Position numbers and translations under genes: made by a program
In this document: positions 1,444 through 64,000 of the stretch, one piece after another
Layout of the letters: every line of letters begins with the position of its first letter
Numbering within the stretch: position 1 is the first letter of the stretch
Assembly: GCA_965219455.1 (NCBI GenBank)
Contig: OZ244744.1
Location: forward strand, 4,608,001 to 4,672,000
Source of the DNA: Candidatus Latescibacterota bacterium
GTDB lineage: Bacteria; Latescibacterota; UBA2968; GCA-2709665
Length of the DNA stretch: 64,000 bases
Direction of reading: 5' to 3'
Notes under the pieces: model-generated
The model's database searches: none
Told to the model about the DNA's origin: nothing
What the model saw: the letters and a program-made list of their open reading frames with translations, nothing else

Positions 1444-1605
1444 ATGAAGACGTATGGACGATGTCACGATCAATTTGTTTCTCAAGAATTTGGAAGCGAA
1501 GGGTTGCTGCTCAGTCTTCAAACGGGGCAATATTTCTCACTGAATCACACTGCTATTGCAGGCACCCAGTTCACGGAGTTTCCACGACCGATTACAGTGG
1601 GTTAA
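1444..1605 (+). pseudogene. Truncated PqqD/RiPP-recognition-element-like ORF (53 aa)
   Basis: Manual translation MKTYGRCHDQFVSQEFGSEGLLLSLQTGQYFSLNHTA, resembling the PqqD N-terminal half; RBS aagggga upstream; runs into attC. Confidence 0.5.
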
Positions 1606-1679
1606 TGCTGCGCCGCCTTCAGGCGGCTTGGCCTTCGCCAACCGGCTAAGCCGGTTCACAAACCCACAAAACGTTACCT
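1588..1679 (+). repeat. attC-like site
   Basis: GTGGGTT/AACCCAC stem, AACCGGCTAAGCCGGTT sub-hairpin, ends AAAAC-GTTACCT; R'' degenerate. Confidence 0.7.
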
Positions 1680-1719
1680 GCAATGCGCCGCTACGGCCGG
1701 TTCCGGGCCGAGAAAACCA

Positions 1720-2697
1720 ATGGAATCCCGCTATCCCAGATCTAGAGACGAAACGGGCCCACTGCCTGATCAGCCGGAGATCACGGAACTCTGCAAGCGA
1801 TTCTGGGGTCTGGAAGTAACAAACGTCCGCAGGGCGAATTCACGGTGCGTCTTCTTTTGCGACAGTTTGCGGGACGGACTCGTTGTGTTCCGCGTGAATC
1901 CGGGATGGGACGGTTCGACCCATCCCAAAACCATTGTGGAATTCGTTCGACACCTTGCCGATCGCGGCGCGCCGTGCCCTGATATCCGTCCAACCACGGA
2001 TGGCAGCCCCTGCAAATCCGTTCGAGACCTCGTGATTTCGGTCGAGAGCTTCCTGGAAGGAGAGGTTGTAGACCGCGTCGATACGCTCCGCAACGTGGGG
2101 GAGGCTCTCGCACGGGTTCACGATGCGAGCGAAGACTTTCCGATCTACAGTTCAGAAGTCAAAGATGCGCGGCTGTACATCTCGGATGCTCTCGAGTATT
2201 GCGAGAGGACGAGGTTCTCCTCGAACGCGGCAGATGCAGTCACTCGGCTTCGAGCACAGTTGAAATACACACCGAACAAGATGAACGTTCGTTGGCTCTT
2301 CTGTCGTGGAGATGTGCGAAGTTGGAACACGATTGCTTCCCCGTCAGGTGAGGTCCGATTCACCGACTTTAATTCTGCTCACTTCGCTCCGGCGCTTGTG
2401 GATGTGGTGATGGTCCGGATGCAATGGCTGATGGGGACCGTGGGTCGACAGCTTACAGACGAGGAAATGCAGCGGTTCGTGGAGGGGTACTTCTCAGTCC
2501 GGCCTCCCTCAGATGATGAACGTACCGCACTCCCGCTTATCTTCGCGGCCTACTATGCCAGGCGCCTCTGCCAGCTCCACCGGAAATGGGGTCCGAGGTC
2601 GCCTAATCGGAAAACCTGGAAACTGGAAGACCGAATTCTCGCTCTCCCGCATGCGGCGATTCGTATGGGCGAGGCTGCAATCGAAGGCATAGATTGA
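1720..2697 (+). CDS. APH/choline-kinase-like phosphotransferase
   Basis: LARVH, degenerate Brenner motif RGDVRSWN, TDFN. Confidence 0.75.
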   Translation: MESRYPRSRDETGPLPDQPEITELCKRFWGLEVTNVRRANSRCVFFCDSLRDGLVVFRVNPGWDGSTHPKTIVEFVRHLADRGAPCPDIRPTTDGSPCKSVRDLVISVESFLEGEVVDRVDTLRNVGEALARVHDASEDFPIYSSEVKDARLYISDALEYCERTRFSSNAADAVTRLRAQLKYTPNKMNVRWLFCRGDVRSWNTIASPSGEVRFTDFNSAHFAPALVDVVMVRMQWLMGTVGRQLTDEEMQRFVEGYFSVRPPSDDERTALPLIFAAYYARRLCQLHRKWGPRSPNRKTWKLEDRILALPHAAIRMGEAAIEGID

Positions 2698-2797
2698 AAG
2701 GCAAGAATCAGGCAACCCGATGCTCGCCGACCCCCGAGGCCCGAATTCATCGCGCGCAAAGAACAGAACCATTCCAAACCAAAATGTGAGGTAACAA

Positions 2798-3754
2798 GTG
2801 GCGGCATCCCAAGTGATTGAGCTTGCGGAATTTCGGCGAAAGCTAAGCGCAATTCTACCGGAAAATTGTAGACCTTTTGTGTGTCAAGGGTCACCTTACG
2901 ACTGCAAGGTTTTTGTCGTAGGTCTAAATCCCGCCACCCCAATGAAGGATGTCTTCTGGCAGTATTGGAGTGATTCTACAGGTTTTGACAAAGATTCCTG
3001 GTTCGAAGCCTACAAGATTGAAAGGAAGAGTCGCCCCCTTAAACCAGGAAAGAAGAGCCGTCGTGATGTTGGCACTACTCGGCGCAATTTGAACAAACTC
3101 GCTGATTTAATTGGTACTGACGAAATATTGGAGACGAATATCTATTCGAAGCCAACCGAACATTACACTGAACTTCGGGCTGAGGAGAAGGATACGGTAG
3201 TTTTCGAGTTCCTTATGACTGAAATCAAGCCAAAGTTAATCATTTCGCACGGAAAAGATCCTGCGAGATATTTCGATCGTAAAGTTCGAGAGTTTGGCGA
3301 TTTTGAGATAGAAACGGTCATCAAAAAGGGCAATAGCTATGATATCATGAGTGTGCCACACTTATCAATAGGCTGGTCAACTAAAAAATTGGCAGTATTG
3401 GCTGATATCATATACAATAATATCCGAACTGCGAAGGGCAGCGTTTCCGCGAATTCAATTGTCGAACGTAACCAAGAACCTGTGGGCTTAAACAGCCGCG
3501 ACGTCCTAGATTTTCCCGATTGTTTAGAATACGTCAATGAGAATGGTCATGCGAATTCTATTGCTGCGATCCATAGGAGTAAAGCCAATTTGGATCCAAG
3601 CATATCAATTGAGTATTGGTGGGGCAACGCTGAAACGCCATCAGAGCGCGCAAGATGTATTCGTGGAGCGATTCGTAGAATCTCTGCTGAGCTATTGAAA
3701 GAGGGAAGATGCTCCAAGAATTTCAACGCAACATATCGAGTCGTATCTGGATAA
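2798..3754 (+). CDS. Uracil-DNA-glycosylase-like fold protein with extra C-terminal domain
   Basis: VFVVGLNPA, ETNIY, IKPKLIISHG, VPHLS motifs; AT-rich relative to neighbours. Confidence 0.6.
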   Translation: MAASQVIELAEFRRKLSAILPENCRPFVCQGSPYDCKVFVVGLNPATPMKDVFWQYWSDSTGFDKDSWFEAYKIERKSRPLKPGKKSRRDVGTTRRNLNKLADLIGTDEILETNIYSKPTEHYTELRAEEKDTVVFEFLMTEIKPKLIISHGKDPARYFDRKVREFGDFEIETVIKKGNSYDIMSVPHLSIGWSTKKLAVLADIIYNNIRTAKGSVSANSIVERNQEPVGLNSRDVLDFPDCLEYVNENGHANSIAAIHRSKANLDPSISIEYWWGNAETPSERARCIRGAIRRISAELLKEGRCSKNFNATYRVVSG

Positions 3755-3840
3755 TTTCAGAGCGAGACAAAATTCCAATGGTGTGCGTTGTAGGTCAGCC
3801 ACTCTAAGGCTTCGCTCTTGATTGGCGCGCGCTGCCATCA

Positions 3841-3930
3841 TTTGACACCGCGTCTGCGCTTCAGTCGCTACGCTCCATCGGCCATTCGGCAACCCGCTTC
3901 GTGGGTTCGCAAGTGAACAGAACGTTATCC
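3841..3930 (+). repeat. attC-like site
   Basis: GGCAACCCGCTTCGTGGGTTCGCAA family core, R' GTTATCC at 3924. Confidence 0.7.
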
Positions 3931-3933
3931 AAC

Positions 3934-4707
3934 ATGAAAACGCACAGATTTAGTGGTCTTTTCTTTGACCTTTACGGTACAATCCTTGTTTACGGGGACA
4001 TGATAATGGCCTGGGAAGATTGGTTTGACTCCATCCGTGAGTCAATGAAGGAATTTGGAGTGAATGTCGAGAAAGACTGCCTTCGAAAAATCTGCACTGG
4101 ATTTTTCAGCAAACCGGAACCCCCTATGGATGGCGTCAAAGGCCTAACGCCGTATGAGCGACGTATTGGGGCTTTGGGAGACCAGCTTGGAGTCGAATTT
4201 ACAGCGCGAGAGATGTCAGACATTTCGGAAAGGAGTGTACACTCTTGGTCACGACACACCTTTCCCGATCCTCAAGCCCAAAGCCTACTGAACGATTTGA
4301 GGGGCTCGCATCGAATGGCCCTAATCACGAATTTCGATCATCCACCCCATGTACATTCTCGCCTCGCGGAACTGGGACTCAGACAGTATTTCGATGCTGT
4401 TGTTGTATCGGGAGAGGTAGGTTCAAAAAAACCCGATCCAGGGATCTTCACCCTGGCGCTGGACAAGATTGGAATGGCAGCAGAGGACGTTGCGTTCATT
4501 GGCGATTCTATTGAGGACGACATCGGAGGGGCTAAAGCAATTGGAATGACTCCAATTCTGATTGATAGAAAAGGCAGGGGCACCGAGCCGGCCGCCCGAG
4601 ATTTCGGCAGCGAGAATTCTGATAATGAGCCAGGTTCCAGCACAGCATGTATAGATGGCGTACAGATTATTTCGTCGTTAGGTGCGCTTCGAAACATACT
4701 CATATAG
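3934..4707 (+). CDS. HAD family hydrolase
   Basis: FDLYGT, ITN, KKPDP, IGDSIEDD. Confidence 0.9.
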   Translation: MKTHRFSGLFFDLYGTILVYGDMIMAWEDWFDSIRESMKEFGVNVEKDCLRKICTGFFSKPEPPMDGVKGLTPYERRIGALGDQLGVEFTAREMSDISERSVHSWSRHTFPDPQAQSLLNDLRGSHRMALITNFDHPPHVHSRLAELGLRQYFDAVVVSGEVGSKKPDPGIFTLALDKIGMAAEDVAFIGDSIEDDIGGAKAIGMTPILIDRKGRGTEPAARDFGSENSDNEPGSSTACIDGVQIISSLGALRNILI

Positions 4708-4721
4708 TTTGTTTTCACGTC

Positions 4722-4797
4722 GGATAACAGCGCGGATTGCGCTGTGGCGCCTTCGGCAACCCCCTGCGCGGGTTCGCAAACCGGCGAAACGTTATGA
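4722..4797 (+). repeat. attC site
   Basis: R'' GGATAAC, GGATTGCG/CGCAAACC L boxes, R' GTTATGA. Confidence 0.85.
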
Positions 4798-4800
4798 GAA

Positions 4801-5565
4801 ATGCCAAAGCAATACTATTGCTTGCCGACAGGGGGTCTCCAGCCCGTGAATAACCAGCCAAACCGCTCACCGATTAGTTGGGACGAGGCGTTCGCACACC
4901 GCTACGTCGAATGGTCCGCTCATATGACCGCGGATGTTGCTTTCTACGTTGAAATTGCGCGCAGGACTGACGGAGCCCTCGTCGAGCTTGCCGTTGGGAA
5001 CGGCCGTGTTGCCATCCCTGTAGCACAGGCGACAGGCCGGAGAGTGATCGGCATTGATTCCTCGCCCATAATGCTCGAACAAGCAAGCGCCCATGCGGCC
5101 GAAGCCGGCGTAGAACTAGACCTGCGAGAGGGCGACATGCGTGACCTGACGCTCGATGAGCCGGCGGCGCTGATCTACTGTCCATTCCGGGCGCTCCTGC
5201 ACCTGCCCACGTGGGACGACCGCCGGCGCACCTTCGAACGGGTCGCCGCGGCGCTGCGGCCAAACGGACGATTCGCTTGGAACGCTTTCGCCTTCGATCA
5301 CCGAATCGCTGCGCGGCTGGATGGCGAACATCAGGACAAGCCCGTCCCGCATATGATCCGTTACGCGGTAGGCGAGAACAGGATCGACATTACGCTCGAC
5401 GACGGCGGGAAGAGCTCCGTCTGGTGGGCAACCAAGAATGAATGGCTCGCGCTCGTCGATGTCGCGGGCCTTCAGGTGGAGGCGCTTTACGGCGGCTTTG
5501 CCCGCGAACCTTTCGGGGACGACAGCACGGAATACGTGTTCCTCGCAACCCCCAGGCCACCTTAG
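4801..5565 (+). CDS. Class I SAM-dependent methyltransferase
   Basis: VELAVGNGR, GIDSS, GDMRD; true start may be GTG near 4846. Confidence 0.85.
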   Translation: MPKQYYCLPTGGLQPVNNQPNRSPISWDEAFAHRYVEWSAHMTADVAFYVEIARRTDGALVELAVGNGRVAIPVAQATGRRVIGIDSSPIMLEQASAHAAEAGVELDLREGDMRDLTLDEPAALIYCPFRALLHLPTWDDRRRTFERVAAALRPNGRFAWNAFAFDHRIAARLDGEHQDKPVPHMIRYAVGENRIDITLDDGGKSSVWWATKNEWLALVDVAGLQVEALYGGFAREPFGDDSTEYVFLATPRPP

Positions 5566-5725
5566 CAGCCCGTTGAAAAAGTCCATCCGGGCTGCGTCCG
5601 GCCCTTGTGGCCGAATTACTGCGTTGCGCTCCCTCCCCGAATCCCCCGATTCGACGCGGTCGCGCGCCTTGTCTTCGGCCACAATGACTCGGCCTCGCCT
5701 GCAGAGCGACTTTATCAACGGACTG
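5566..5725. mobile_element. 160-bp MITE (IS5/IS1182-like ends), intact copy
   Basis: 18-bp TIRs CAGCCCGTTGAAAAAGTC / CAGTCCGTTGATAAAGTC, flanked by TTAG duplication; first TTAG includes the gene stop. Confidence 0.85.
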
Positions 5726-6160
5726 TTAGCGGGCGAAGGGAACCTGAGTGGGCGACACAACTAGCTAGTGAACCGGTCGCCTACGGCATGCATACTACGC
5801 CGTATACATGTCCGCGCAGGCGTGGTTTGCGGCGATGCGACCAGGTGAAATAGTTGACAATCACACAGGCTTATTAAACCTGCTGTCCAATCAGATTCAC
5901 CAGCGTTCCCTGTTTCCAATGCAATGGAATGTGTCGTGTAAAGGCTGTTCAGAACTTTCTTCGATTTCGTTTTTGGGCCATCCCGAAACGGCTCGAATTG
6001 ACGACAGAGTGGAACCCCTATCACGACCCAGCTTAGAATAATTTTGGCCGCGGTTCGGTATGTTGCTATTTGCAACGAGGGATCGGCGTCTAAAGCGAAA
6101 TATTGACGAGTGGAAGAGGCAGCGCAATAGCACACGACTTAGGTGTTCTGACTAATTTCA

Positions 6161-6601
6161 ATGAAAACCCGTCACAGAGCCTACGCCTATATAACCAGCG
6201 GGAGCCGGCTGCTCGTGTTTACGCAACCGGGGGCGCCTGAAGCCGGAATTCAGGTTCCAGCGGGAACGATAGAGCCAGGTGAGAATCCTCGGGATGCGGT
6301 GATGCGAGAAGCAAGAGAGGAGACGGGTTTAGCCGAGCTCAGATGTGAACGGTTCCTGGCCCGGGATACCCGGGACATGCGGGATTGCGGGAGCGATGAA
6401 CTACAGTATCGCTGGTTTTTCCATTTGTCTGTGGAAGGACCAACAGAAGAAACCTGGCGTCATGGAGAATATTCTGAGGAAGGATCTCTCCTCCATCCGT
6501 TCGATTTCTTCTGGGCGGATGTCAGGGCACTTCCCAAGCTCGTTGCCAATTACGACGACAAGATTGACTTACTGGTAGAGTCAATGGACGCTGGCAATTA
6601 G
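6161..6601 (+). CDS. NUDIX hydrolase (copy 1)
   Basis: PAGTIEPGENPRDAVMREAREETG NUDIX box. Confidence 0.9.
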   Translation: MKTRHRAYAYITSGSRLLVFTQPGAPEAGIQVPAGTIEPGENPRDAVMREAREETGLAELRCERFLARDTRDMRDCGSDELQYRWFFHLSVEGPTEETWRHGEYSEEGSLLHPFDFFWADVRALPKLVANYDDKIDLLVESMDAGN

Positions 6602-6611
6602 CGCAATCGTC

Positions 6612-6724
6612 CTATAACAGCCCGGTTTGCGCTGCGTCGCGGAGTTTATCCTGAGCTTGTCGAATGGCGCCCTGGCCTTCGTCAACCAGGCTGCGCCAGG
6701 TTCGGCAACTGCAAAACGTAAAGT
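6612..6724 (+). repeat. attC-like site containing REP half-site
   Basis: R'' CTATAAC, L'' GGTTTGCG, internal GAGTTTATCCTGAGCTTGTCGAA, degenerate R' GTAAAGT. Confidence 0.7.
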
Positions 6725-6825
6725 GCCATGCCGGGGACGAAGTAAGGCAGCCTTCTAAGACCAGGTCATCCCGGATCTGTCGAAGTTCCGACACACGCAC
6801 TGGCAAAACATATAGGGTTTATGAA

Positions 6826-7473
6826 ATGAGCCATCTCTTTCTGTTTGGCGTGCTCACGATTCTACTGGCAGCAACGCCTCGCCACGAAGCGGCCTCAGGT
6901 CCGGAGGACGACTATGGACGGAGCCACCCGGACGGCCTGATCATCCCGTGGCAGTCGCTTCTTCAGGGCAAGGGCCTCGAAGGCTGGCGGGCGACCACGT
7001 CATCCGGAGCGTGGTCGCGCGTCGGTGACACCGTTGTGGGGAAGCTGGATGGCAAACGCAAGTCCCATATGTTCCAGGGCGATTCCAACTGGAAGAACTA
7101 CGAATATTCGCTCTTTGTCACGCTGGAAAAGGGCTCGTGCATGCAGTTCCCTTTCCGCGTTACTGACGACAGAAAGGGTTTCTACTTCGTCGAATTCGAT
7201 TACGCCTGGCAGTCAATTAACGTAACGTTGCGTGAGCCGGACCGTCATGGCGTCACCAAGCTCAGCGTCGTCAACTATCCCCTGGAGAAAGGACGCGAGT
7301 ACCACCTCATCATCTCGGCCAGGCAGCGCTCGCTGACTACCTATATTGACGGGAAGCTCGTCAACCAAGTTACCGATGCCAGGTACGACGGAGGCGGCAT
7401 CGGAATCGCAATGTGGTGGGACACTCGAGCGAAGTACCGCGATCCGAAGATACGGCACTACAAGTGGCCTTAG
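6826..7473 (+). CDS. Secreted DUF1080 (3-keto-disaccharide hydrolase-like) protein
   Basis: Signal peptide; LEGW, WKNYEY, YIDGKLV, GGIG, YRDPKIR. Confidence 0.75.
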   Translation: MSHLFLFGVLTILLAATPRHEAASGPEDDYGRSHPDGLIIPWQSLLQGKGLEGWRATTSSGAWSRVGDTVVGKLDGKRKSHMFQGDSNWKNYEYSLFVTLEKGSCMQFPFRVTDDRKGFYFVEFDYAWQSINVTLREPDRHGVTKLSVVNYPLEKGREYHLIISARQRSLTTYIDGKLVNQVTDARYDGGGIGIAMWWDTRAKYRDPKIRHYKWP

Positions 7474-7694
7474 TGCTCGATCCCGGAAAAAGATCGGCGA
7501 AATCCGGTCGACCGGAAGCAGTGAAGACAGCTATCAGCTCTCAGCCGTCAGCTTGAATCAGTAACCCGATCGGTTGATGTCACCGCCGTGAAGAGGCAGA
7601 TCGAGTACGGGCGCAGAGATTGCACTTCGAAAAGCTCAGCACAAGCAACGCAGCGAGACCGGATGCATGGATGCCCTCAAGTAGAGCACGCATC

Positions 7695-7747
7695 CTGTAA
7701 CTGCACGGACCGCGCTTCGCGGGTTCGCAAACCAGGGTTCGTTAATT
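7695..7747 (+). repeat. attC-like site (short)
   Basis: CTGTAAC ... GCTTCGCGGGTTCGCAAACC ... GTTAATT. Confidence 0.65.
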
Positions 7748-8019
7748 GACAGGGCGGTTTGAAAGGCCTATTGGAAAAACTCTGAGGAGTAGAATTGGTA
7801 TCCCACGAGTCCTTATTCGGATTTTGCTTACCGATGCAGATTTCGTTACATTTCCGGAAGGATTTCATCGATAATATCCGCATCGCAAGGAGAACAAAGG
7901 CCTAAAATCTTTCGGTTCTTCGGTAACATCATTCGCATGTTTTTCGAACCGAGAACACAGTGCTATCAGCCAAATTTTCATGCCTATTGTCACGATAACC
8001 TTGCCGTTTACGCTGTGGA

Positions 8020-8303
8020 TCACCGCTGTCCAGGAACGAAGCCGATTTTGGACAGGTGTGACCTTTTGTGTTTTTGTGCCTTTTGTGGCAAATGTTTTTT
8101 CGCGGCAAACTGGTAGAGCGGGACAATAGCCACAAAAAGCACAGAAGGCACAGAAGGACTACAAGCCAAAGGGTGGGTGAAAAAACGTCTGCAGTCCGTA
8201 CGAAATATTGGCGTTTTTCGCAGCTATTCAGTCGTTCACGAAATAAGCTTTTTTGCCTTATGTCACTGTTGTCCAAGAACGAAGCAGATTTTGGACAGGT
8301 GTG
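8020..8303. repeat. Direct-repeat pair enclosing an inverted GCCACAAAAAG-type repeat
   Basis: 34-bp direct repeats 8027-8060 and 8270-8303 (2 mismatches); inverted repeats 8062-8089 / 8129-8157. Confidence 0.8.
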
Positions 8304-8459
8304 GCTGTGGATGACATAGAACTGATCGCAGGGACCTTGCCACGCCGTCAACAACGATTCGTCGAAGCCTGGGCGGAGTTGCATCAGGAGGAGCTACTTG
8401 AAGATTGGGGTCGGCTCCAATCCGGGTATCTTCCCTTGCCGATCGATCCGCTCCGTTGA
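8304..8459 (+). pseudogene. DUF4160 (DhiT-like toxin) C-terminal remnant
   Basis: GTLPRRQQRFVEAWAELHQEELLEDW...IDPLR; N-terminus missing. Confidence 0.75.
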
Positions 8460-8470
8460 GGGGGTTTAGA

Positions 8471-8776
8471 ATGAGTCATCCAATTTATCGAGTCGTTTCG
8501 TTCGAGATTGTCCAGCCACATCGGATTAAAGTCAGATTCAACGATGAGACGACTCAGGTCATCGATTTTCGACCAGTTCTTGAAGGCGAGTTGTTCGGAC
8601 CTCTGATGGATGAAGTACTCTTCAATCAGGTGCGTATCGATACTGAGGTGCATACACTCGTCTGGCCGAATGGTGCTGACTTTGATCCAGCCACGCTTCA
8701 CGATTGGCCAGTTCATGAGAAAGAATTGAGGAAAATGGCCGGGCGTTGGTCAGAAGCACTGGCAGGAAATGAATGA
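8471..8776 (+). CDS. DUF2442 (DhiA-like antitoxin)
   Basis: FGPLMDEVLFNQV, TLVWPNGADFDPATL. Confidence 0.85.
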   Translation: MSHPIYRVVSFEIVQPHRIKVRFNDETTQVIDFRPVLEGELFGPLMDEVLFNQVRIDTEVHTLVWPNGADFDPATLHDWPVHEKELRKMAGRWSEALAGNE

Positions 8777-8917
8777 AATCAGGGGGTGATCGTTGCCTGT
8801 CGAACTCTACTGTGATTTGACAGACCACCACATCGGTTGATACGGCACCTCCGGCAACGGGGGTGCCGAGAATGTTACAGGACCTGTGAGACAAGGATCT
8901 CTCCAACCCCAACTCCG

Positions 8918-9358
8918 ATGAAAATCCGCCACAGAGCTTACGCCTATATAACGCAGGGGAGCCGGTTGCTCCTCTTCACTCAACCCGGGGCTCCGGAAGC
9001 CGGCATTCAGGTTCCCGCGGGGACGATCGAGCCGGGGGAGAATCCTCGGGATGCCGTAATGCGAGAAGCAAAAGAGGAGACGGGTTTAACCAAGCTCAAT
9101 TGTGAACGGTTCCTGGCCCGGGATACCCGAGACATGCGGGATTGCGGCAGCGATGAACTACAGTATCGCTGGTTCTTTCATTTGTCTGTGGAAGGACCAA
9201 CAGAAGAAACCTGGCGTTACGGCGAACATTCGGAGGACGGATCTCTCATTCATCCGTTCGATTTCTTCTGGGCGGATGTCAGAACGCTCCCCAGGCTCGT
9301 CGCCGGTTACGATGACAAGATTGACTTATTGATAGTGTCAATGGGCGCACACAAGTAG
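8918..9358 (+). CDS. NUDIX hydrolase (copy 2, paralogue of 6161-6601)
   Basis: Same 441-nt length and near-identical protein. Confidence 0.9.
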   Translation: MKIRHRAYAYITQGSRLLLFTQPGAPEAGIQVPAGTIEPGENPRDAVMREAKEETGLTKLNCERFLARDTRDMRDCGSDELQYRWFFHLSVEGPTEETWRYGEHSEDGSLIHPFDFFWADVRTLPRLVAGYDDKIDLLIVSMGAHK

Positions 9359-9428
9359 AATAACGTCCTGTAGCGGCTAGGCGCCGTAGGCAACCGTTTC
9401 GCGGTTCGCGCGCGGCGAGGACTTGCAC
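9358..9428 (+). repeat. Degenerate attC-like site
   Basis: GAATAAC, GTCCT/AGGAC stem, GGCAACCGTTTCGCGGTTCGC core. Confidence 0.55.
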
Positions 9429-9449
9429 AGATGATGACCGGCCAGTCCG

Positions 9450-10389: not shown

Positions 10390-10439
10390 GAAAGTCACGC
10401 GTCACTTGCATTCCGATAATTCATCGCCTCAGGTTTTGC

Positions 10440-55119: not shown

Positions 55120-55238
55120 CCCGGGTATTCAATTGTCTGTCAATGGCCGACGCGCCCATCTTATCCTGTCGCCGAGTAAATTTGCGTCAGACTCGACCTG
55201 CCGCGATCCGGTTCAAATGACAGCTGGAGGAAGGAATA

Positions 55239-56063
55239 ATGAGCACCGTTGATCCGGGCAGAGCCATGACTTTCGTACTTAACGCGAATGATCCCGTTCT
55301 TTCAGGTTTAGCCAAATATGCAACTGGCGATTGCAGTCGTGAAGAGGCAATCGAAGCTCTCAGGATCAATCAGAGAGAGGATGGTGGCTGGACCAGAACT
55401 GACAAGGATTTTCAGGGAGATTTGTCTATCATCACCGCAACATTTGTCGCGCTGCAATGGTTGAACTGGGTTGGAGATCGGAATAGCTCTGTGCTTCTGA
55501 ACACGCTGGACTTTCTCCGAAGAATCCAGCGTGAAGATGGACACTGGGATGAGCCGGAAGAGATTGTCAGTTTCAACCCACCTTTTTGGATGTTGCCCGG
55601 CCGCTACGGGAACCAGGTGTGGTTGACCTCTGCAATATGCTGCAAATTGAAGGAATTAGGCCAGGCACATCAAGTGGATTTTGCAAAAGCACTGGAATTT
55701 GTCCGGCGGGGATGGAACGGCGAGAGATTTCCAGACTACGCGCACACGCATTGGATGGCAATGCCTCTGTTTCGCCTGCAAGGGTCCGGCAGTGGGACAG
55801 ATGAGCAGATTATCAGAGGATGTAAGAAGAGACTGTATGAGGCCGTGGAGAGAGACGAGGCAGATCCTGGAGACATAATCTCGATTGCCTACGCCAGCCT
55901 TCTTGCCGGTAATGTTGCGGAAGACCTTTTTGAATTGTCACTGGCCAGGGTGAAGAGCAATCAACAAAGTGATGGGGGCTGGATCACAAATCATGGAGAA
56001 AAACACCGAGCGAGTTTTACCGTGGAAGCCCTGTTTCTGTTCAAAAAGTGCGGCCTGATATGA
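55239..56063 (+). CDS. Prenyltransferase/squalene-oxidase (QW) repeat protein
   Basis: QREDGGW, QREDGHW, QQSDGGW. Confidence 0.8.
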   Translation: MSTVDPGRAMTFVLNANDPVLSGLAKYATGDCSREEAIEALRINQREDGGWTRTDKDFQGDLSIITATFVALQWLNWVGDRNSSVLLNTLDFLRRIQREDGHWDEPEEIVSFNPPFWMLPGRYGNQVWLTSAICCKLKELGQAHQVDFAKALEFVRRGWNGERFPDYAHTHWMAMPLFRLQGSGSGTDEQIIRGCKKRLYEAVERDEADPGDIISIAYASLLAGNVAEDLFELSLARVKSNQQSDGGWITNHGEKHRASFTVEALFLFKKCGLI

Positions 56064-56087
56064 GTGCCAAACCTGGTTGAGGAAAGA

Positions 56088-56501
56088 ATGAAGACGATCG
56101 TTCGCACCTCAGGGATTCTGATTACGCAGGATGGCCTCTTGCTGGTGAAGTGCGATGGCATCGAGGATTACCTCTTGCCTGGCGGAAAGCTCGAGGACGG
56201 TGAGTCGGATCTGGAATCGTTGCGGAGAGAACTGATGGAAGAGCTCAATATTACCCCCACGGATCCTGAATTCTTCGGCGAATACGAGCATCTGGCCTAC
56301 CCTTCGAAAACCGGTGAGAGGTACCGGGTTAGAGTTCGAGCATACGTAGCAGGTTTTGAGGGAGAACCTGTTCCGGACCAGTACGAGGTGCTCGAAATCG
56401 CCTGGGCATCAATGGAGGATCTCGAATCGGGGAAATATCCACTGAATCCTATCTTGCGGAAGTACATCGTGCCCGAACTTAAGCAACAGCAACGGCTATG
56501 A
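56088..56501 (+). CDS. NUDIX hydrolase
   Basis: PGGKLEDGESDLESLRRELMEEL. Confidence 0.9.
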   Translation: MKTIVRTSGILITQDGLLLVKCDGIEDYLLPGGKLEDGESDLESLRRELMEELNITPTDPEFFGEYEHLAYPSKTGERYRVRVRAYVAGFEGEPVPDQYEVLEIAWASMEDLESGKYPLNPILRKYIVPELKQQQRL

Positions 56502-56502
56502 T

Positions 56503-56669
56503 GACCTTTCGACAGGCTTCGACTACCCTTCGACCCTTCGACAAGCTCAGGGCCCGCAGATTCAGGGCAAAGGCTCAGGCCAGGGCTCAGCGGCCGAGCT
56601 CGCGGTTCAGCGACCGGCGGAATGTTCACTGAAATTGCGTCGGGCTCGCAGCCCGCGGGCACGTTGTGC
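56503..56669 (+). repeat. REP-expanded attC-like site
   Basis: Stuttered TTCGAC / CTCAGG units, GGGCTCAGCGGCCGAGCTCG, ends GTTGTGC. Confidence 0.55.
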
Positions 56670-56707
56670 GCCGTAACGCATTTTCGATGAACCCGGGTGA
56701 GATTCCC

Positions 56708-57400
56708 ATGATTTCGGTTCTGCTGTTCGATATTGGAGAGACCATTCTCGATGCCGGAGGTCAACAGGATGCCTTGATGGAGGCGCATCGTACTACTCTC
56801 GGCAAATTCGGCTTTGCGTTGTCTGTGGACGAGTACAGGCAGTTGGACAGCGACAAGATATCGCAGTTCGTTCCGAGCGCCATGCACGCCATCACGTGGC
56901 ACTTTGCCAGGTCTGACGTGAGTCTCTTCAATGAGATTACCGAGGACGTGCGATCACACTATTCGGAGATTCGGTCTCTCGGGTACCAACTTTATCCCGC
57001 GGTCGCTGTGATTCTGGAGCAGTTGGCCGAAGAATACACGCTCGCGTTGGCTGGCAACGCACCAGCGAGTATCACGGACACCCTCGATGATCTTGGTGTG
57101 TTGCGCTGGTTTCGCCATAGGGATGTGTCAGGAAGCATTGGAATCAAAAAGCCTGATGAACGTTTCTTCCGTACAATTCTCGAAAAGGCCGGATTCTCGC
57201 CTTCGGAGGCGATCATGATTGGTGATCGCCTCGACAACGATATCATTCCGGCAAAGCAGGTGGGCCTCCGGACCATATGGTTTCGGCAAGGCAGATATGT
57301 GGCCTTAGAACCTCGTGTGCCGGATGAACTCCCGGATGTGACAATTTTCGACCTGGAAGACCTGCCCTCGGCGGTCCGTTCGATCGCCGAAACTGATTGA
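56708..57400 (+). CDS. HAD family hydrolase
   Basis: FDIGET, KKPD, IGDRLDNDI. Confidence 0.9.
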   Translation: MISVLLFDIGETILDAGGQQDALMEAHRTTLGKFGFALSVDEYRQLDSDKISQFVPSAMHAITWHFARSDVSLFNEITEDVRSHYSEIRSLGYQLYPAVAVILEQLAEEYTLALAGNAPASITDTLDDLGVLRWFRHRDVSGSIGIKKPDERFFRTILEKAGFSPSEAIMIGDRLDNDIIPAKQVGLRTIWFRQGRYVALEPRVPDELPDVTIFDLEDLPSAVRSIAETD

Positions 57401-57488
57401 ATTTGGAGGGGGCGCTGCGCATAATGCCGCGCTTTCCGCATCCGCAAAAAGGATCAAAGAGCAAGACGACGTATAGAGGCTGATCAAG

Positions 57489-58373
57489 ATGGACGACGAC
57501 GTGCGCGATATCCTGGCAAAGATGGGGTTGTGTGACTCCCATCCGGAGAGGGTCGAGCCAATCCGGAAGAAAAACGGTAACCACCTTTATCGGATCGCAT
57601 TTGAGGGTTCAACTTATGTTCTGAAAGTATTCATTGATCCGGATGCCTCGAGGGAAGTTAGGGCGTACGCGATGCTCAGGGATCTTGGAGTTCCGACCCT
57701 TCGCGTCATTTCGAGTACGAATGATGCGCTTCTGCTTGAGGACCTTTACGCCAGCGAACATCTCAGGCTTGCCTGCCAGGAGGATATCGGAAATCCGGAA
57801 GTTGGCGTCGCTCTAGCCAGTTGGTATCACGCGCTCCACCGTGCAGACTGGAAGTCGTGGACGCGTCACCACGGGCCTTCACTCGTTCGGCGTGAAATTG
57901 ACGAACTTACGCCCGATTCGATCCTGGAGGTGGCGTCCAGGATACGCGGCCCATATCAGTCCAGGTGGGTGACTCTCGCCGACAATATCGACAGAATCAG
58001 GAATGCCGCGATAACTTCCGATGAAACGCTAACTTACAATGATTTTCATTGGACCAATCTGGCATTGTCTCGGAATGCTAAGCCGATCAGGGCCGTTGTG
58101 TTTGACTATCATCTTCTGGGGTTGGGATTGCGGTATTCGGATTGCAGAAACGTGACGGGCTCTCTTGGCCCCGTTGCTGCGGATGCATTCCAATCTGTAT
58201 ACGGTGAGACCGATCCCGGGGAGAAGGTTCTGGACGACTTAATAGCTCCTCTGTATGCTCTGGTTGAAGCCTTCCGTCGGCCCAGGTTTCCGTCCTGGGC
58301 GGAGGAAAGCCTCAAACTTGCAGAGAGTGGGGAAATTCACGGCAGGTTTGAACGGGTTAAAGAGGTTTTGTGA
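57489..58373 (+). CDS. APH-like phosphotransferase
   Basis: YVLK, LLLED, TYNDFHWTN, FDY. Confidence 0.8.
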   Translation: MDDDVRDILAKMGLCDSHPERVEPIRKKNGNHLYRIAFEGSTYVLKVFIDPDASREVRAYAMLRDLGVPTLRVISSTNDALLLEDLYASEHLRLACQEDIGNPEVGVALASWYHALHRADWKSWTRHHGPSLVRREIDELTPDSILEVASRIRGPYQSRWVTLADNIDRIRNAAITSDETLTYNDFHWTNLALSRNAKPIRAVVFDYHLLGLGLRYSDCRNVTGSLGPVAADAFQSVYGETDPGEKVLDDLIAPLYALVEAFRRPRFPSWAEESLKLAESGEIHGRFERVKEVL

Positions 58374-58448
58374 GAGAAGCTTTGGGGTAGGTCCGCTCTA
58401 CAGGCGTTGCGGCGGCTGCGACGCCGAAAATACGGATGTGGCGCGAAC

Positions 58449-59006
58449 ATGGACCGTACGCACTTCGATGCGATCATCTCCAAATACCCTGTCCTGGGCG
58501 AGGAGCAGGGGCAGCTACGTCCCGGTGTCCACTTCCGCAGATTCGAAAACGAACTGGCTTCGACCATTTGCGGCGCATCCTATATCATTCCCTTTGTCTC
58601 GGACAGTCAATGTCTCGTGACCAGGCGGGCCAACGGGAAATGGGTCCTGCCTGGAGGCACCCTCGAACCCGGCGAGAATTGGGAGGAGGCCGGTCGTCGC
58701 GAACTGCTGGAGGAAACCGGGAGCATCCTGGGGAAACTTCATCCGATCGGGATGTATCACTGTGTTTCCCGAGACGACCGCCCCAGGTTGCCCCACTTTC
58801 CCCACCCGGAGCATGTCCGAGTCGTATCGTGGGCGGATGTCGTTCGAAAAAATGAAGACAGGGCAGACCCGGATCCGGAAAGCAGGATTGTGGTGGTTCG
58901 GGCCGTCCATTTCAGACAGGCGGCAGAGCTATTCGGCCCGGAGTCGGCGGACTTCGGGGAACTCTACCGATTCGCTCATGATATGAAGCGTTCCCGGCGC
59001 ACGTGA
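58449..59006 (+). CDS. NUDIX hydrolase
   Basis: PGGTLEPGENWEEAGRRELLEETG. Confidence 0.9.
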   Translation: MDRTHFDAIISKYPVLGEEQGQLRPGVHFRRFENELASTICGASYIIPFVSDSQCLVTRRANGKWVLPGGTLEPGENWEEAGRRELLEETGSILGKLHPIGMYHCVSRDDRPRLPHFPHPEHVRVVSWADVVRKNEDRADPDPESRIVVVRAVHFRQAAELFGPESADFGELYRFAHDMKRSRRT

Positions 59007-59029
59007 AGGTCAAACTGGTGGCTCTCTAT

Positions 59030-59492
59030 ATGGTCTTGAAGCAGCTCTCGGTGTGCGCGCTGAACTTCTCGCGCTGCAGGACTATTCCATAAACTGGGAG
59101 AATATTCCCCTCGTATCCGGAGCCATTATCTGGGATTGGCGCGGCAGGAATAACGCCATCTATCCGGATATGCGATTGGGCCGGGCCGCTTTGAGAGTAG
59201 CCCGTACAGGCGTCTTTCCTCAAAGAGCAACCCTTCTCACGAAAACACAACTTTGACGCTGGTCGTTACCAACCGCCAATTGGAAGCGGGATCTCTCCAT
59301 CAATTGGCTAAACAGGTTCATAGCTCCATGTCGCAGGCCATTCAGCCCTTTCACACCCAATATGACGGTGATATCCTGTATGCCGTTACCACCAACGAAG
59401 TTAAGACAAAAACCCTGGACGAACTCGATATAGGATTTATAGCTTCTGAACTGGCCTGGGACGCCGTGTTAACGTCTTACGGGGACAGTTGA
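59030..59492 (+). pseudogene. Peptidase S58 (DmpA/P1 family) remnant
   Basis: IPLVSGAIIWD...IYPD, then TLVVTN, IQPFHTQYDGDILYAVTT; internally deleted and frameshifted. Confidence 0.7.
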
Positions 59493-59564
59493 TTTGTGCG
59501 AGCAACTGACTTTTGAGAGGAGATGATTCGTGTGGGAAAGTCACTTTCGAAGAAGGAGGAATCA

Positions 59565-60953
59565 ATGCAGTTTCAATTCCGAACGGTCGTGATCCTGGCA
59601 CTTCTATGTGTAATCACTTCGGCGCCGGCGGAAGCCGCGAGAATCATTTCAGGACCGCTTGTGGGCCATACCACGACGACGTCTGCAACAATCTGGGTTG
59701 AAACGGACGCCGCCGCGAAGGTACGTATCGACTACTGGGTCGAGCCTCGGATCATGTTTCACCGCACGTTCAGAGAACCCATGATCCGGGGTTCGGCGGA
59801 AGGAACAACGGAATCGACGACGCCATATACGTGCGCCATCGAACTTTCCGGACTGCCACCCGGGCGGCTGGTCTATTACGATGTCAACGTCGACGGTAAA
59901 TTAGTCCGTCCCCAGACCGTCCAGGTGTTTCCACTCATGCCGCCCGAATCGATCTCCGAAACAGAACCCGATCGAATCACTGAATTCACAGTCGCCTTCG
60001 GATCGTGCAATCTACCCGCGAGAGTGCCTGTTCAATCGATCTGGTCACAGGTTGCGAGGTTCCGCCCGGCCGCCTTTCTGTTTATCGGCGACAACAATTA
60101 CATGCCGGGCAAGGCGGAAGGGTATGATCTCCCCGAAGCCGGCGTCAGAGAGATCATGTCCCTTTACCATCGCAGATTCCGGCAGGTTCCCGGGCTCAGA
60201 GACATCGTCGCCACAACACCCAGCTATGGTATCTGGGACGACCATGACTACGGACCGAACAATTCCGACCGGACATTCAAGTGGCGAGATCTCGCAATCG
60301 AGACGTTTCGCCGTTACTGGCCGAACCCATACGCCGAGTCCTCAGGAGTGCCTGGCGTCTTCCACCGGTTCCGGATAGCAGACGTTGAATTCTTCATGCT
60401 CGACAACCGCTCTCACAGGGACCCAAACGAAGCGGAGGATAGATCCACAATGTTTGGAGAAGGCCAAATCCAATGGCTCAAGGCCAAACTGAAAAGCAGC
60501 ACGGCCACCTTCAAGGTGATCGCTTCCGGGGGCACGGCGGTTGTTGATGGAAGCGGCGAAACATGGTCGAATTTTGGTGACGAACGTGATCGGTTTTTCG
60601 CGTGGCTCTTTGCCGAAGATATCACCGGCGTCCTTTTTCTCGCCGGGGATTGGCACTCGGGCGTACTCCATCGCCTGGACCGCCCGGGGTTTGATTATCC
60701 ACTCTATGAACTCATGAGTTCCAATCTGGCCGTCCGCCGACGCAACCCGGACCCCACGCCCGACGGCAGTAGCAACCGTGGCGGAGGGCGTCAATCGGCC
60801 GCGCCATACGTCAATGACTACAACTTCGGACTGCTACGATTTGTTGGAGAAAAAGGCAAGCGGGAAGTCTATCTTCAAATCGTTGACGACTCAGGCAAAA
60901 TAAGAATCAGCCAGCTACTCTCGGAACAATATCTGAGGGCGATAGCGGACTAA
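59565..60953 (+). CDS. PhoD-like alkaline phosphatase, secreted
   Basis: Signal peptide, FGSC, GDNNY, WDDHD, LDNR, AGDWH. Confidence 0.9.
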   Translation: MQFQFRTVVILALLCVITSAPAEAARIISGPLVGHTTTTSATIWVETDAAAKVRIDYWVEPRIMFHRTFREPMIRGSAEGTTESTTPYTCAIELSGLPPGRLVYYDVNVDGKLVRPQTVQVFPLMPPESISETEPDRITEFTVAFGSCNLPARVPVQSIWSQVARFRPAAFLFIGDNNYMPGKAEGYDLPEAGVREIMSLYHRRFRQVPGLRDIVATTPSYGIWDDHDYGPNNSDRTFKWRDLAIETFRRYWPNPYAESSGVPGVFHRFRIADVEFFMLDNRSHRDPNEAEDRSTMFGEGQIQWLKAKLKSSTATFKVIASGGTAVVDGSGETWSNFGDERDRFFAWLFAEDITGVLFLAGDWHSGVLHRLDRPGFDYPLYELMSSNLAVRRRNPDPTPDGSSNRGGGRQSAAPYVNDYNFGLLRFVGEKGKREVYLQIVDDSGKIRISQLLSEQYLRAIAD

Positions 60954-61055
60954 GGGGCGGGTCCGCAAACCGGAAGACGTAATGTTACATTCCGGACTGT
61001 TGTATAGCCGCGCCGCATCTCAATTCCGCTCCGGAACCAACAGTCTGAGGCAGAA

Positions 61056-61855
61056 ATGGACGATACGAAACCGCTGGCATCGCTCATAGAGGCTGCACGG
61101 GAAGCTGATGTTCACCAGAGTTTCTCTTACCACGGGTGGGTCGTGCCCGAGTACAAATGCCTGTGCATGACGATCTAAAAGTCGCCTGCACGACGGTAAA
61201 GGTGACGCTCTACCATCTGGCTGGGAACCAGGTGCCGACGGAATCGAACCACATCCACGGCCTCGACTTTGGGATGTTTCTCGGCGACTACAGCACTGAA
61301 GAGATCATTGAGATACTGACCTCGCCCGAATGGGTGAGATTCTGCTTTGTCCGGAATCCGTACCATCGACTGCTGTCCGCCTACAAGTCGAAGATCGGAA
61401 ACCCGTCGGACAGCCAGTAATTGTGGCTGCACGATGCGATCCGGGAGAAGTTCAATTACCCTGCCGGGGATGGATGTCATCCTGTCCTGGAAACCTTCGC
61501 TGACTTCGTACATTTCCTGTCAGACTGTGGCGGGAAGGTACGCTATGAGCTGAAGCCGGACGCCATCTATGACGGACACTTCAATGCTCAGACACGGATT
61601 CTTAGGCAGGACTTGATTAACTATGATTTCATCGGCCGTTTCGAGAACTTCGCAGACGATTTCAAGACGGTCCTGACACGGCTGGGCGCTCCGGAGGAAA
61701 CCATCGCCCTTGCCTCGGAGAAGCGGAACGCTACGGCCCACGTGCCACTGAACGCTGCGTACAGTCGCGAATTGGCGGCTCTGACCTATGATCTCCACCG
61801 CGACGACTTCGAGGCGTTCAAATACGACAGGGATAGCTGGTTTTGCGACTCATGA
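61056..61855 (+). pseudogene. Sulfotransferase family 2, disrupted
   Basis: KVACT, FVRNPYHRLLSAY, YDFIGRFE; frameshift near 61176 and TAA at 61418. Confidence 0.8.
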
Positions 61856-61906
61856 TCCGTAGTCCGTTACTGTCTGTGACCAGAAGCCTGACGGCCCCAA
61901 AACACC

Positions 61907-61932
61907 GGGCGCCCACAAGGGGCGCCCCTACA
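61907..61932 (-). repeat. GTAG-type REP
   Basis: Minus strand TGTAGGGGCGCCCCTTGTGGGCGCCC. Confidence 0.7.
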
Positions 61933-62059
61933 AGTCGAGGAGGAATGAGTCCGGGCGGAGGGTGCTTGATTGGGTACCGCAAACTGGCACTTTTGGATAC
62001 GTTTGTAGGACCATCGCCTTTAACGTACCAAGCGACCCGTAAGCCTTTAAAATAAAGCC

Positions 62060-62133
62060 ATCGACAGGCTCTGGCAACCCGCGGAGATTTGGGCGATCCG
62101 CTACGCGGATTCGCGCACGGCTGCACGTTATAC
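62060..62133 (+). repeat. attC-like site (3' part)
   Basis: ATCCGCTACGCGGATTCGC ... GTTATAC. Confidence 0.6.
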
Positions 62134-62388
62134 GCAGGCAGTCAGGTTGTTAGACTCTTGGACTGACTATTGAACAACAACGCGTCTTCCGGAATCACTT
62201 CTGTTGAGCTGTATACACCGGGGGAGCCGTGTAATCCAAACCCAACAGTCGAAGGTAGTTCTGGCCCAAGGCGACATTTCGGAAGGCATTGTCGTCCAGG
62301 TGACGATTTATCCGATTGTTATTTCTTCTCGAGATTAACGGCATTGAACAACGATAGATATTCTGGTTTGAATTCATTGAGGCGACCG

Positions 62389-62925
62389 TTGAAATCTAAG
62401 GTATGGGCTGTTCTGTGCATTTTTGTCCTGGTTTCTTGCGCAACGGTAAAGGCCCGTAAGGAACCACCGGAGATTCGCCCCGAGGAAATTTGCAAAGATC
62501 AGACAACACAGACCAAATGTTGGCTTCCTTTAATATCTCCGACCCCGTGTTATTATTGGCGCACCGATGATTAGAATCACACTGTTACATGGTCGGGAGC
62601 CTGCTTGGGCAAAGTTCCACACGGTAGAGGAACCTTGACGATAACTTGGCTAAAGGTGCCGCCTCCGCCAGATATAAAGGATCTGAAGGATTGGTCTGGT
62701 GTTTGGGAGATATTTTACACAGGATTTATGAATTATGGCCAGCGACACGAGGTGTGGATGGAAGACTCACCTTTGGGTAACTATACTGCAAAACGGACTT
62801 ATAGGTATGGCAAACTGATTAATCATTTGATGCGGAGCACTCCAGGTTCTTGTAGTCAATTTGTGTATAGATCAGGTAAGTCTATTGGTATTCGGAAAGT
62901 AAATCCGATATTGTGTGATTGGTAA
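62389..62925 (+). pseudogene. Cys-rich lipoprotein with internal stop
   Basis: Lipobox LVSC; CYYW..(TAG 62572)..TVTWSGAC...GRGTLT read in frame. Confidence 0.6.
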
Positions 62926-63157
62926 GGCACCATGGTTGAATCAAAACAGACACAGAGTAATTGCCTTGATTCTCCTTTGGGGAGTCGGCTTGTTGATTAC
63001 CGGCGGAATCGCCTGGACATCAGTGTGGGCGGTAATGGGACATTCGCATTAATGTCGGAGTTCCTTACCCTCTATCTCAAATCGTGGGATCTCGCATGGT
63101 CCTTTTCCATTCACCACCTGAAGTTCTGAATCCCGTTGTATGCAATGAGTTCGCGAT

Positions 63158-63715
63158 ATGTCCGAAATTGCAATCCGTGGATGTTTGGTAGATCCGACTC
63201 CTGTCCAACTTGGGCTGATTCGGGAGATTCATGGTGCGTTGACAGTTCGCTTGATCCCGCACTGGCTGGGTGGGGGCTGGGCGGTTGACTTTCTGTTAGG
63301 CGAAGTCTCGCGCTTACACGGCGACATCGATTGGGCAATATGGAAAACAGATGCGCCGGAGGTGACCGCGTGTCTTGGTACTTTGGGGTATTCCAAAAAG
63401 GAAGTCCGGCATCCCGAAGAACATATCGGGTTTTTCAGACTCGATCAGTATGTCAGTTTTGGACTACTCGAGAAGACCCAATCCGGAGACGTGGTCACCT
63501 CTGGCCGTTGGACCGATTGGCCTTATCCGCGTGGAGCCTTTTGTTCACCGGAGGGGCGGCTGGACGACCTATCCTGCCCGATCCTCAGCGCCGAGGCCCA
63601 ACTGGACGAGAAGGTCAACTTCCACAAACACCCTGCTGGCGAACCTCTGAGAGATGTAGATCTTACCGCGATCCAGAAGCTGCGCATGTATATTGCGGCT
63701 CAGCGCCGCAAATAG
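63158..63715 (+). CDS. ANT(2'')/Lnu-like nucleotidyltransferase
   Basis: WLGGGWAVD, RLHGDID. Confidence 0.8.
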   Translation: MSEIAIRGCLVDPTPVQLGLIREIHGALTVRLIPHWLGGGWAVDFLLGEVSRLHGDIDWAIWKTDAPEVTACLGTLGYSKKEVRHPEEHIGFFRLDQYVSFGLLEKTQSGDVVTSGRWTDWPYPRGAFCSPEGRLDDLSCPILSAEAQLDEKVNFHKHPAGEPLRDVDLTAIQKLRMYIAAQRRK

Positions 63716-63930
63716 AAGAAGCGTCACGAAGGGGTTATCACGTCCATGTCCGGTTTCGGGCTGACCCTTCGCGAAACTCCTTCGGGGTTCGGGCAGGGCG
63801 GGACCTCACCGGCAATATCGACGCCGAAAAAGACTGAGGATTCGGCTCATTCCGTGTGCGCAGAGTATCGCAACCAGGAATCCGCAACTCCTGATGGTCA
63901 AACAACCACGCCGGGACGATAGGAGAAGCA

Positions 63931-64000
63931 ATGAAGACGCGTAATGCCTGCCGATCTGCCGTCGGCGTCGCGCTCGCGACAGCGGTCATCCTCATGTGGG
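63931..64000 (+). CDS. Membrane protein, partial (runs off window)
   Basis: RBS aggaga, MKTRNACRSAVGVALATAVILMW. Confidence 0.5.
   Translation, partial: MKTRNACRSAVGVALATAVILMW

Follow-up and report, generated by a model that had tools for sequence, protein, structure and literature searches.

Which enzyme could have assembled a long array of gene cassettes that lies next to no recognizable integrase? This question is raised by a 64,000-nt stretch of the genome of a Candidatus Latescibacterota bacterium (contig OZ244744.1; in the following called the window), which covers genome positions 4608001–4672000 of a 5.84-Mb single-contig genome. Positions up to 64,000 refer to the window and seven-digit positions to the genome. 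The initial annotation, made from the DNA alone, had described here a cassette array of >62 kb, starting at 1588, with an attC family of its own and no integrase in view. We found that the repeats of the window are genuine attC-like sites and that the window covers only the eroded distal stretch of a longer chromosomal array, which is very likely of the integron type. The comparisons of sequences point with good probability to a decayed array, formally a cluster of attC sites lacking integron-integrases (CALIN), that was probably served by a non-canonical integrase. The comparisons covered a genus sample of 15 genomes, consisting of the own genome and 14 congeners (among them G003, G008, G009, G011 and G013), and a wider sample of 41 related genomes, including G017 from another genus of the same family and G036 from the same order.

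The sites were searched with two covariance models, R1, built from a MAFFT alignment of 12 attC sites (A1), and R2, built from the 33 R1 matches with E<1e-4, which comprise 32 distinct sequences. With filters off and a site cut-off of E<0.05, R2 found 14 matches in the window, all on the + strand; when matches were listed up to E=10, 26 lay on the + strand vs 3 on the − strand. Eighteen of these 26 were at least 50% intergenic, while intergenic DNA makes up 19.8% of the window. R1, applied to 280 kb, yielded 55 matches up to E=10, every one on the + strand. A custom covariance model had been envisaged in the initial annotation, and R2 indeed recovered attC-like sites both in the window and upstream of it, including all five sites that had been singled out as best (4722, 20498, 32813, 35649 and 48009; 19.5–80.2 bits). 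The common spacer consensus ATAAC-N5-GGTTTGCG ... GGGTTCGCAAACC-N-AACGTTAT was confirmed in the window. The previous count of about 20 such spacers is reasonable provided that weak sites and half sites are included, but only seven of the 14 sites exceed 30 bits. Genome-wide, a profile of the 3′ half gave a cluster on the + strand at 4.55–4.74 Mb and another, small one at 2.54 Mb. Two simpler scans were discarded: strict RYYYAAC...GTTRRRY pairing (five pairs per strand) was too strict for this attC family, and a loose structural regular expression was uninformative, with 162 matches on the + and 144 on the − strand. The Rfam scan of the window, for which Rfam offers no attC family, returned a group II intron as its sole match.

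The sites upstream of the window read (A/T)TAAC, a 5-nt spacer, an 8-nt L'' box, the centre, the matching L' box, an 8-nt spacer and GTTA. Their L boxes vary from site to site and are always complementary to their own partner. From alignment A1, RNAalifold picked the L helix, with compensatory changes in 7/7 pairs. Among the 32 distinct sites of the R2 alignment, 89.7% of the cells were paired vs 74.6% after shuffling, a value reached in 0 of 500 shuffles; controls with slid positions were 27–42% paired. Double changes occurred in 14 of 18 pairs, compensatory changes in 7 of the 8 L pairs, and the R pairs were 91% paired. The 32-site alignment is model-fitted; the MAFFT alignment A1 gives the same pattern of covariation. 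The R''–L'' spacer is 4–5 nt long in 31 of the 32 sites and the L'–R' spacer 7–8 nt, again in 31, around a centre of 33–102 nt, so that whole sites range from 76 to 145 nt. The central spacer is unpaired and the terminal structure variable, as expected of attC sites. Eight contiguous pairs form the L box, which is perfect in 14 of the 32 sites. Conserved extrahelical bases in the L box are a feature of attC sites. None was found among the 32 distinct best sites, which have 0 inserted L-box bases; the extra L'' base at 48009, which had been likened to such bases, is present, but stands alone and is not a feature of the family.

Palindromes like these could also belong to REP (repetitive extragenic palindromic) or MITE (miniature inverted-repeat transposable element) families, or be terminators, spread through a conserved genomic island whose genes are not cassettes. 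This genome is rich in dispersed palindromes, such as a 168-nt element with 96 matches, the region is largely collinear among species, and the whole neighbourhood has a bias towards the + strand. The 3′-half matches are, however, clustered at the two places named above and not dispersed, and the strict use of the gene strand (55/55 for R1, 14/14 for R2) speaks against such palindromes, as does the invariance of the AAC/GTT cores while the L boxes covary. Moreover, insertions and deletions between species are bounded by attC sites, and the array also comprises a tyrosine recombinase and an att-like GTTA junction to which these sites are linked, both described below. We therefore regard an origin from such dispersed palindromes as highly improbable.

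The integron-type array extends well beyond the window. It is a cassette array, as initially annotated, but its true start lies upstream rather than at 1588. The array spans from ~4.5475 Mb to ~4.672 Mb, i.e., ~125 kb, and its head, 57–60 kb upstream of the window, combines dense, well-kept attC sites with recombinase remnants. Between 4550739 and 4607471 lie 31 attC sites (R2, E<0.05) that are better than those of the window, at a density of one per 1.85 kb compared to one per 4.6 kb in the window. Altogether, 45 attC sites (E<0.05), all on the + strand, form a one-strand cluster at cassette spacing. The earlier description of a decaying array with its own attC family agrees with these results: the window sites are sparse and eroded, and the family is lineage-specific, occurring in 13 of the 14 congeners, 19/21 genomes of the same family and 10/19 genomes of a sister family. 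A second small cluster at 2542942–2546677 holds three good attC sites on the + strand (59–67 bits), with no recombinase remnant seen beside it.

The window contains ~70 cassette-type genes on the + strand (1..64000), based on a self-trained gene call of 67 genes and a Pfam scan of 79 open reading frames (ORFs). They encode GNAT, NUDIX and HAD-hydrolase proteins, APH-family kinases, SAM methyltransferases, glyoxalase/bleomycin-resistance proteins, AAC(3)-type and ANT(2'')-type enzymes, GrpB and HIT. The toxin–antitoxin cassettes noted previously were found again, with HicAB at 30339–30781 and a Doc pair at 37991–38571. This gene content is typical of environmental cassette arrays. Nearly all genes share one orientation, as had been stated (64 of 67 on the + strand), but co-orientation alone is not diagnostic because the entire 4.50–4.76 Mb neighbourhood (260 kb) is biased towards this strand. 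Coding-potential scores fall between ~4.553 and 4.680 Mb.

The individual window sites, all on the + strand, differ in preservation (R2 scores in brackets). The best one, at 20498..20581 (80.2 bits), has fully compensated L boxes (CACCCACG / CGTGGGTG), and its L box closes in the fold (z −2.54). The same is true of the L box of the first site, 1589..1679 (50.1 bits, E 3.9e-10; z −3.17), which is followed by 3840..3930 (50.7 bits) and by a complete site at 4722..4797 (55.7 bits), composed of R'' ATAAC, L'' GGATTGCG, L' CGCAAACC and R' GTTAT. The variants at 27712..27796 (58.2 bits; minimum-energy fold not attC-shaped) and 53912..53995 (43.0 bits) belong to one subtype, and the last detectable site lies at 63733..63811 (33.2 bits). 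Weak sites were found at 10314..10400 (22.3 bits) and at 28656..28749 (23.7 bits), 3′ of a DUF4926 gene. At 35649..35727 (22.7 bits), R' is mutated to GTTTC and the L box closes in the fold. R'' boxes overlapping a stop codon, a detail already given in the initial annotation, were seen at 10314, 24874 and 35649. Three sites are long: 27878..28000 (20.7 bits) with a degenerate R'', 48009..48126 (20.8 bits) with the extra L'' base (GGTGTTGCG vs CGCAAACC), and 32813..32935 (19.5 bits; z −0.13), an eroded site that kept its R boxes while its L boxes are no longer complementary. Half sites occur as well, namely 3′ halves alone at 7700–7745, 50287–50320 and 60958–60990 and a 5′ half alone at 6612–6663. 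The latter is part of an R2 match at 6612..6724 (19.1 bits) with a gene directly after it, and its matching 3′ half is that at 7700..7745 on the same strand (GGGTTCGCAAACC...GTTAA, recognized by its sequence). In this apparently split site, the start codon of a 269-aa DUF1080-type gene marks the end of the 5′ half, and the 3′ half follows 230 nt past the gene, as if the gene sat inside the attC centre.

Comparison with the congeners revealed how old this part of the array is. The window DNA matches all 14 congeners at 73–95% identity and is largely collinear with them. When 72 window proteins were searched by tblastn in 60-kb syntenic blocks of four congeners, 36 were present in G008, 34 in G009, 41 in G013 and 40 in G003; 60 occurred in at least one block, 14 in all four and 12 in none. 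Because each of these four congeners shares 34–41 of the 72 window genes in collinear arrangement, we consider the window part old and vertically inherited. The initial annotation had named a gene order conserved across related genomes as an argument against an integron, and this is half the case here, the shared genes of each congener standing mostly in the same order. The differences between the species consist of single genes or small groups of genes and are cassette-sized. G013 joins window position 4794 to 7721 through one attC; the extra 2.9 kb present here therefore lies between two copies of the attC 3′ part, with the 4722 site as the left border of the block absent from G013 and the 3′ half at 7700–7745 as its right edge. 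Detectable attC sites in the syntenic blocks of the relatives number 0 in G008, 7 in G009, 13 in G013 and 8 in G003, all on the array strand. The array in the window was thus largely fixed before the genus diversified, and the cassette signature remains. The decay that had been annotated is confirmed, but the window stretch is old and largely frozen, unlike a superintegron with fast turnover.

The window itself contains no integrase, as had been noted. Canonical IntI was defined by model TIGR02249 at its cut-off of 265 bits, with NF040815 at 220 bits as a second model. None of the 15 genus genomes reached the TIGR02249 cut-off, and no match covered model positions 175–234; under the usual criteria, this makes the array a CALIN. 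In the own genome, where no match exceeded the cut-off, the model detected only fragments on the + strand, at 4547491, 4556745 and 4583289. A search of the flanks for intI and attI, as previously suggested, thus yielded no canonical intI, but did find recombinase fragments and attI-like blocks upstream. The intact orthologue in G013 is a protein of 333 aa that stays below both cut-offs (TIGR02249, 214 bits; NF040815, 218.6 bits). It has the SAM-like and the catalytic domains and lacks ~41 residues exactly at the additional domain of the G017 IntI. With this protein as query, tblastn found three fragments in the own genome, matching residues 1–149 plus 278–332 (an internal deletion), 248–332 and 237–332, and besides these two Xer-like genes at 33–34% identity. 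With no more than three truncated copies of the recombinase gene left, the array in this genome is presumably frozen.

The 3′ end of the recombinase gene together with the next ~150 nt forms a block that is present in six copies in the own genome. These attI-like copies lie at 4547432–4547796, 4556997–4557298, 4583331–4583698, 4603461–4603657, 4733671–4733805 and 2047697–2047888. In an alignment of 11 rows, which also includes two copies from G013 and one each from G011 and G038, the block ends in ...GTTCGGTAAT.CC.TAGTTA, and past the GTTA all rows differ except for the syntenic pair of G013 and the copy at 4547432. Homology stops at this GTTA in 9–10 copies, before eight different downstream sequences, and in four of the six own-genome copies one gene and an attC follow. 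The R' core of the attC family is likewise GTTA. Judged by sequence, a block ending in this way is what an attI with a G|TT crossover would leave, and we call it attI-like. Two copies stand apart from the main array. The isolated one in the region 4733671–4736800 lies 60 kb beyond the main array end, with a 53-bit attC ~1 kb further on and a weak one besides. The isolated copy at 2047697–2047888 lies ~12 kb upstream of a second copy (2059892–2061291, 99% identical) of the 3′ part of an ABC-transporter gene; in the window, this part occupies positions 1–1400.

The association between the short recombinase and attC sites recurs in the relatives. At 8 of 10 recombinase loci from G020, G013, G038, G011 and G016, the gene is followed by attC sites on its own strand. 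The eight supporting loci (five in G020, one each in G013, G038 and G011) have 37 attC sites downstream and six upstream, all six in one locus. R2 detected no attC around the recombinase at one G020 locus and at three G017 loci. The recombinases of G013, G011, G038 and G016 stand alone. To look beyond these genomes, we scanned one genome per species and obtained 596 relatives of the short recombinase from many phyla, of which 80 loci were kept. Among these 80, R2 gave 12 matches with E<1 in eight loci, all on the recombinase strand; seven of the eight loci have a stand-alone recombinase with same-strand attC sites downstream, and the R2-positive stand-alone loci share an attI-like GTTCG..AAT..GTTA motif. 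In Saccharibacillus kuerlensis, three attC sites (42–48 bits) lie 3′ of the recombinase gene at cassette spacing. Here, the block past the stop codon contains GTTCG..AAT repeats and ends in GACGTTAT; a Paenibacillus locus has the same sequence as far as GACGTTAT, after which the two diverge. A metagenome-assembled genome (MAG) of Micrarchaeota contains a 43-bit attC site.

From these sequence comparisons, we lean slightly towards the short recombinase as the platform enzyme, a member of an integron-like group without the additional domain of IntI. Several observations weigh against an integron-type array served by this enzyme. Thermodynamic DNA folds of the bottom strands of eight window sites closed the L box in only three (1589, 20498 and 35649), and only two of the eight reached z ≤ −2.5, the others being near 0 or positive. 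About 45 of the ~65 window spacers have no detectable attC, and the collinearity of the window across species is unlike that of active superintegrons. In G016, recombinase and attC sites occupy opposite strands. All copies in G020 (six loci) and G017 (three loci) have an IS91-type transposase (Y2_Tnp, Zn_Tnp_IS91) a few bases downstream; they reside in IS91-type elements, so that five of the eight supporting loci could reflect targeting by the insertion sequence (IS) instead of a role as platform enzyme. A canonical IntI does exist in the same family: TIGR02249 exceeded its cut-off in 2 of the 41 related genomes, G017 (465 bits) and G036. Finally, the additional domain of IntI is reported as necessary for attC recombination (Messier & Roy 2001, as cited in PMC9668308), which makes a domain-less recombinase an unexpected partner.

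Several of these points can be turned into an explanation of their own, an ordinary CALIN that was built by a canonical IntI later lost, with the short recombinase as an unrelated hitch-hiker, akin to IS91-associated recombinases, that tends to insert at or beside att sites. The canonical IntI genes in the same family and order suit this explanation, and so do the multi-copy, IS91-linked state of all six G020 recombinase genes and the reported need for the additional domain. It is further favoured by two loci in G017 in which an IS91-type element lies immediately downstream of a canonical intI. At one of them (G017:C1:2485000-2504999, 8505–11961), the intI (465 bits) is followed on the same strand by the short recombinase plus the Y2 transposase; the second shows the same pairing with a truncated intI. 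Such a history would nevertheless have to account for 0 of 15 genus genomes with a canonical IntI, yet an attC family in 13 of 14 congeners. The own genome contains no Y2_Tnp match. In a quick tree, 21 of the 22 IS91-linked rows fell into one clade (Shimodaira–Hasegawa-like approximate likelihood ratio test, SH-aLRT, 93), and the genus recombinase was placed outside of it; the group as a whole, with canonical IntI on a long branch within it, was set apart from Xer. IS91 linkage applied to 20 of the 80 kept loci. In Paenibacillaceae and in the archaeal MAG, the GTTA-ending block co-occurs with this attC type beside a stand-alone recombinase. Taken together, we consider the loss of a canonical IntI unlikely, though appreciably more probable than an origin from dispersed palindromes.

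Under the favoured explanation, an integron-type array with a non-canonical integrase, a cassette consisted of one gene or a small operon followed by an attC of the lineage-specific family, which reads nnnTAAC (R''), 4–5 nt, an 8-bp L'', a centre that holds two small hairpins, an 8-bp L', 7–8 nt and GTTAnnn (R'). We infer the mechanism by analogy with integrons. Cleaved at G|TT, the folded single strand of attC would recombine with an attI-like site just downstream of the recombinase gene. With the attI-like site beside the recombinase, new cassettes would enter at the head and push older ones distally. Going one step further, the chances appear evenly balanced that the compared sequences define a distinct class of integrons, with a stand-alone short recombinase that lacks the additional domain and whose gene points into the array. 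Its attI would carry GTTCG..AAT repeats and a GTTA crossover ~150 nt past the stop codon, and its attC type would have no fixed extrahelical L-box base. Besides this lineage, the module would occur in Spirochaetota, in a DPANN archaeal MAG and, among the Bacillota, in Paenibacillaceae.

Other repeats and inserted elements interrupt the window. Two back-to-back IS transposase genes (DDE_Tnp_1 + DUF772 by Pfam), which are diverged copies, occupy 13158..16052; this element is multi-copy in the own genome and in the congeners G003, G011 and G013. A group II intron with a reverse transcriptase/maturase ORF, identified by Rfam (RF02003, 107.9 bits; RF00029, 49.2 bits) and Pfam, lies at 50390..52311 on the + strand and has ~11 full-length copies genome-wide at 87–99% identity. 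Assignment to the group IIC-attC introns was rejected, as its insertion site is an inverted copy of the 168-nt palindrome and not an attC. This palindrome itself lies at 5560..5730 and has its 96 BLAST hits on both strands. A pair of inverted ~400-nt repeats at 25209–25632 and 45252–45658 has G-rich/C-rich palindromic ends of the GGGGGAGAGG type, and parts of it are scattered over the genome (44 matches). Both the 168-nt palindrome and the ~400-nt repeat were rejected as attC variants because they are dispersed genome-wide.

Sedentary chromosomal integrons of the Xanthomonas type have an inactivated integrase and stable arrays. The locus resembles them in its long chromosomal array, lineage-specific attC sites, broken integrase and partial conservation among species, and also in its toxin–antitoxin and small-molecule-modifying cassettes. 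Unlike them, the genus (15 genomes) has no IntI with the additional domain, and the recombinase is co-oriented with the cassettes, with the attI-like site 3′ of its stop codon.

In the sense of IntegronFinder, a complete integron combines a one-strand attC cluster, present here, with an IntI recognized by its additional domain, which this locus lacks, and an attI site with a G|TT crossover beside the integrase gene, for which the block ending at GTTA is a candidate. The CALIN definition of at least two attC sites without a nearby IntI describes it well: 45 attC sites are present, and none of them has an IntI-specific domain in its vicinity. Compared to the average CALIN of five sites reported in PMC4889954, however, it is far larger and has recombinase pseudogenes and an attI-like site at its head. 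These pseudogenes would be invisible to the intI_Cterm-based pseudogene search described there. Sedentary chromosomal integrons are delimited in the same source by >19 attC sites or by presence in all genomes of a species; the 45 sites surpass this number, whereas the required IntI is missing. The arrangement is similar to that of the ‘inverted’ (Treponema) and the archaeal integrons, in which the integrase lies on the cassette strand with attI immediately downstream (PMC4889954, PMC9668308), but those integrases are reported with the additional domain, and ~41 residues are missing here.

In the accessible part of their work, Smyshlyaev et al. (10.1101/542381) describe an integron-like subgroup of tyrosine recombinases that includes IS91- and IS3-associated members, the insertion being specific to IntI. 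The short recombinases fit this subgroup as the closest IntI homologues without the insertion, and the G020 and G017 relatives are paired with an IS91-type Y2 transposase. Unlike the IS91-associated members, the genus recombinase is alone, without a Y2 transposase, and heads attC arrays. In the own genome, no Y2_Tnp/Zn_Tnp_IS91 gene follows the recombinase, as it does in IS91-family elements. That part of 10.1101/542381 makes no mention of an array-heading role for the subgroup, and our literature search, with subscription journals outside its scope, yielded no description of attC arrays headed by an insertion-less recombinase.

In PMC9668308, Ghaly et al. use the additional domain to define IntI. 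Search tools rely on this domain, so that arrays lacking it are classed as orphan CALINs. According to Cury et al. 2016 (PMC4889954), Firmicutes contain no complete integrons, and 95% of CALINs have no recognizable intI pseudogene. The present analysis physically ties an attC family with covariation to a domain-less recombinase in several genera and phyla. If this recombinase is active on the sites, the definition of the integron would widen, and part of the unexplained CALINs would be accounted for. The evolution of IntI from an Xer-like ancestor would then become testable with natural proteins, and the domain-less enzymes would stand either for a ‘pre-insertion’ stage found in nature or for a parallel route by which single-strand attC recombination evolved. 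Whether or not this holds, the locus records the ageing of a cassette array: its head is well kept, its tail eroded and its recombinase broken, and about half of the cassettes are fixed across the genus.

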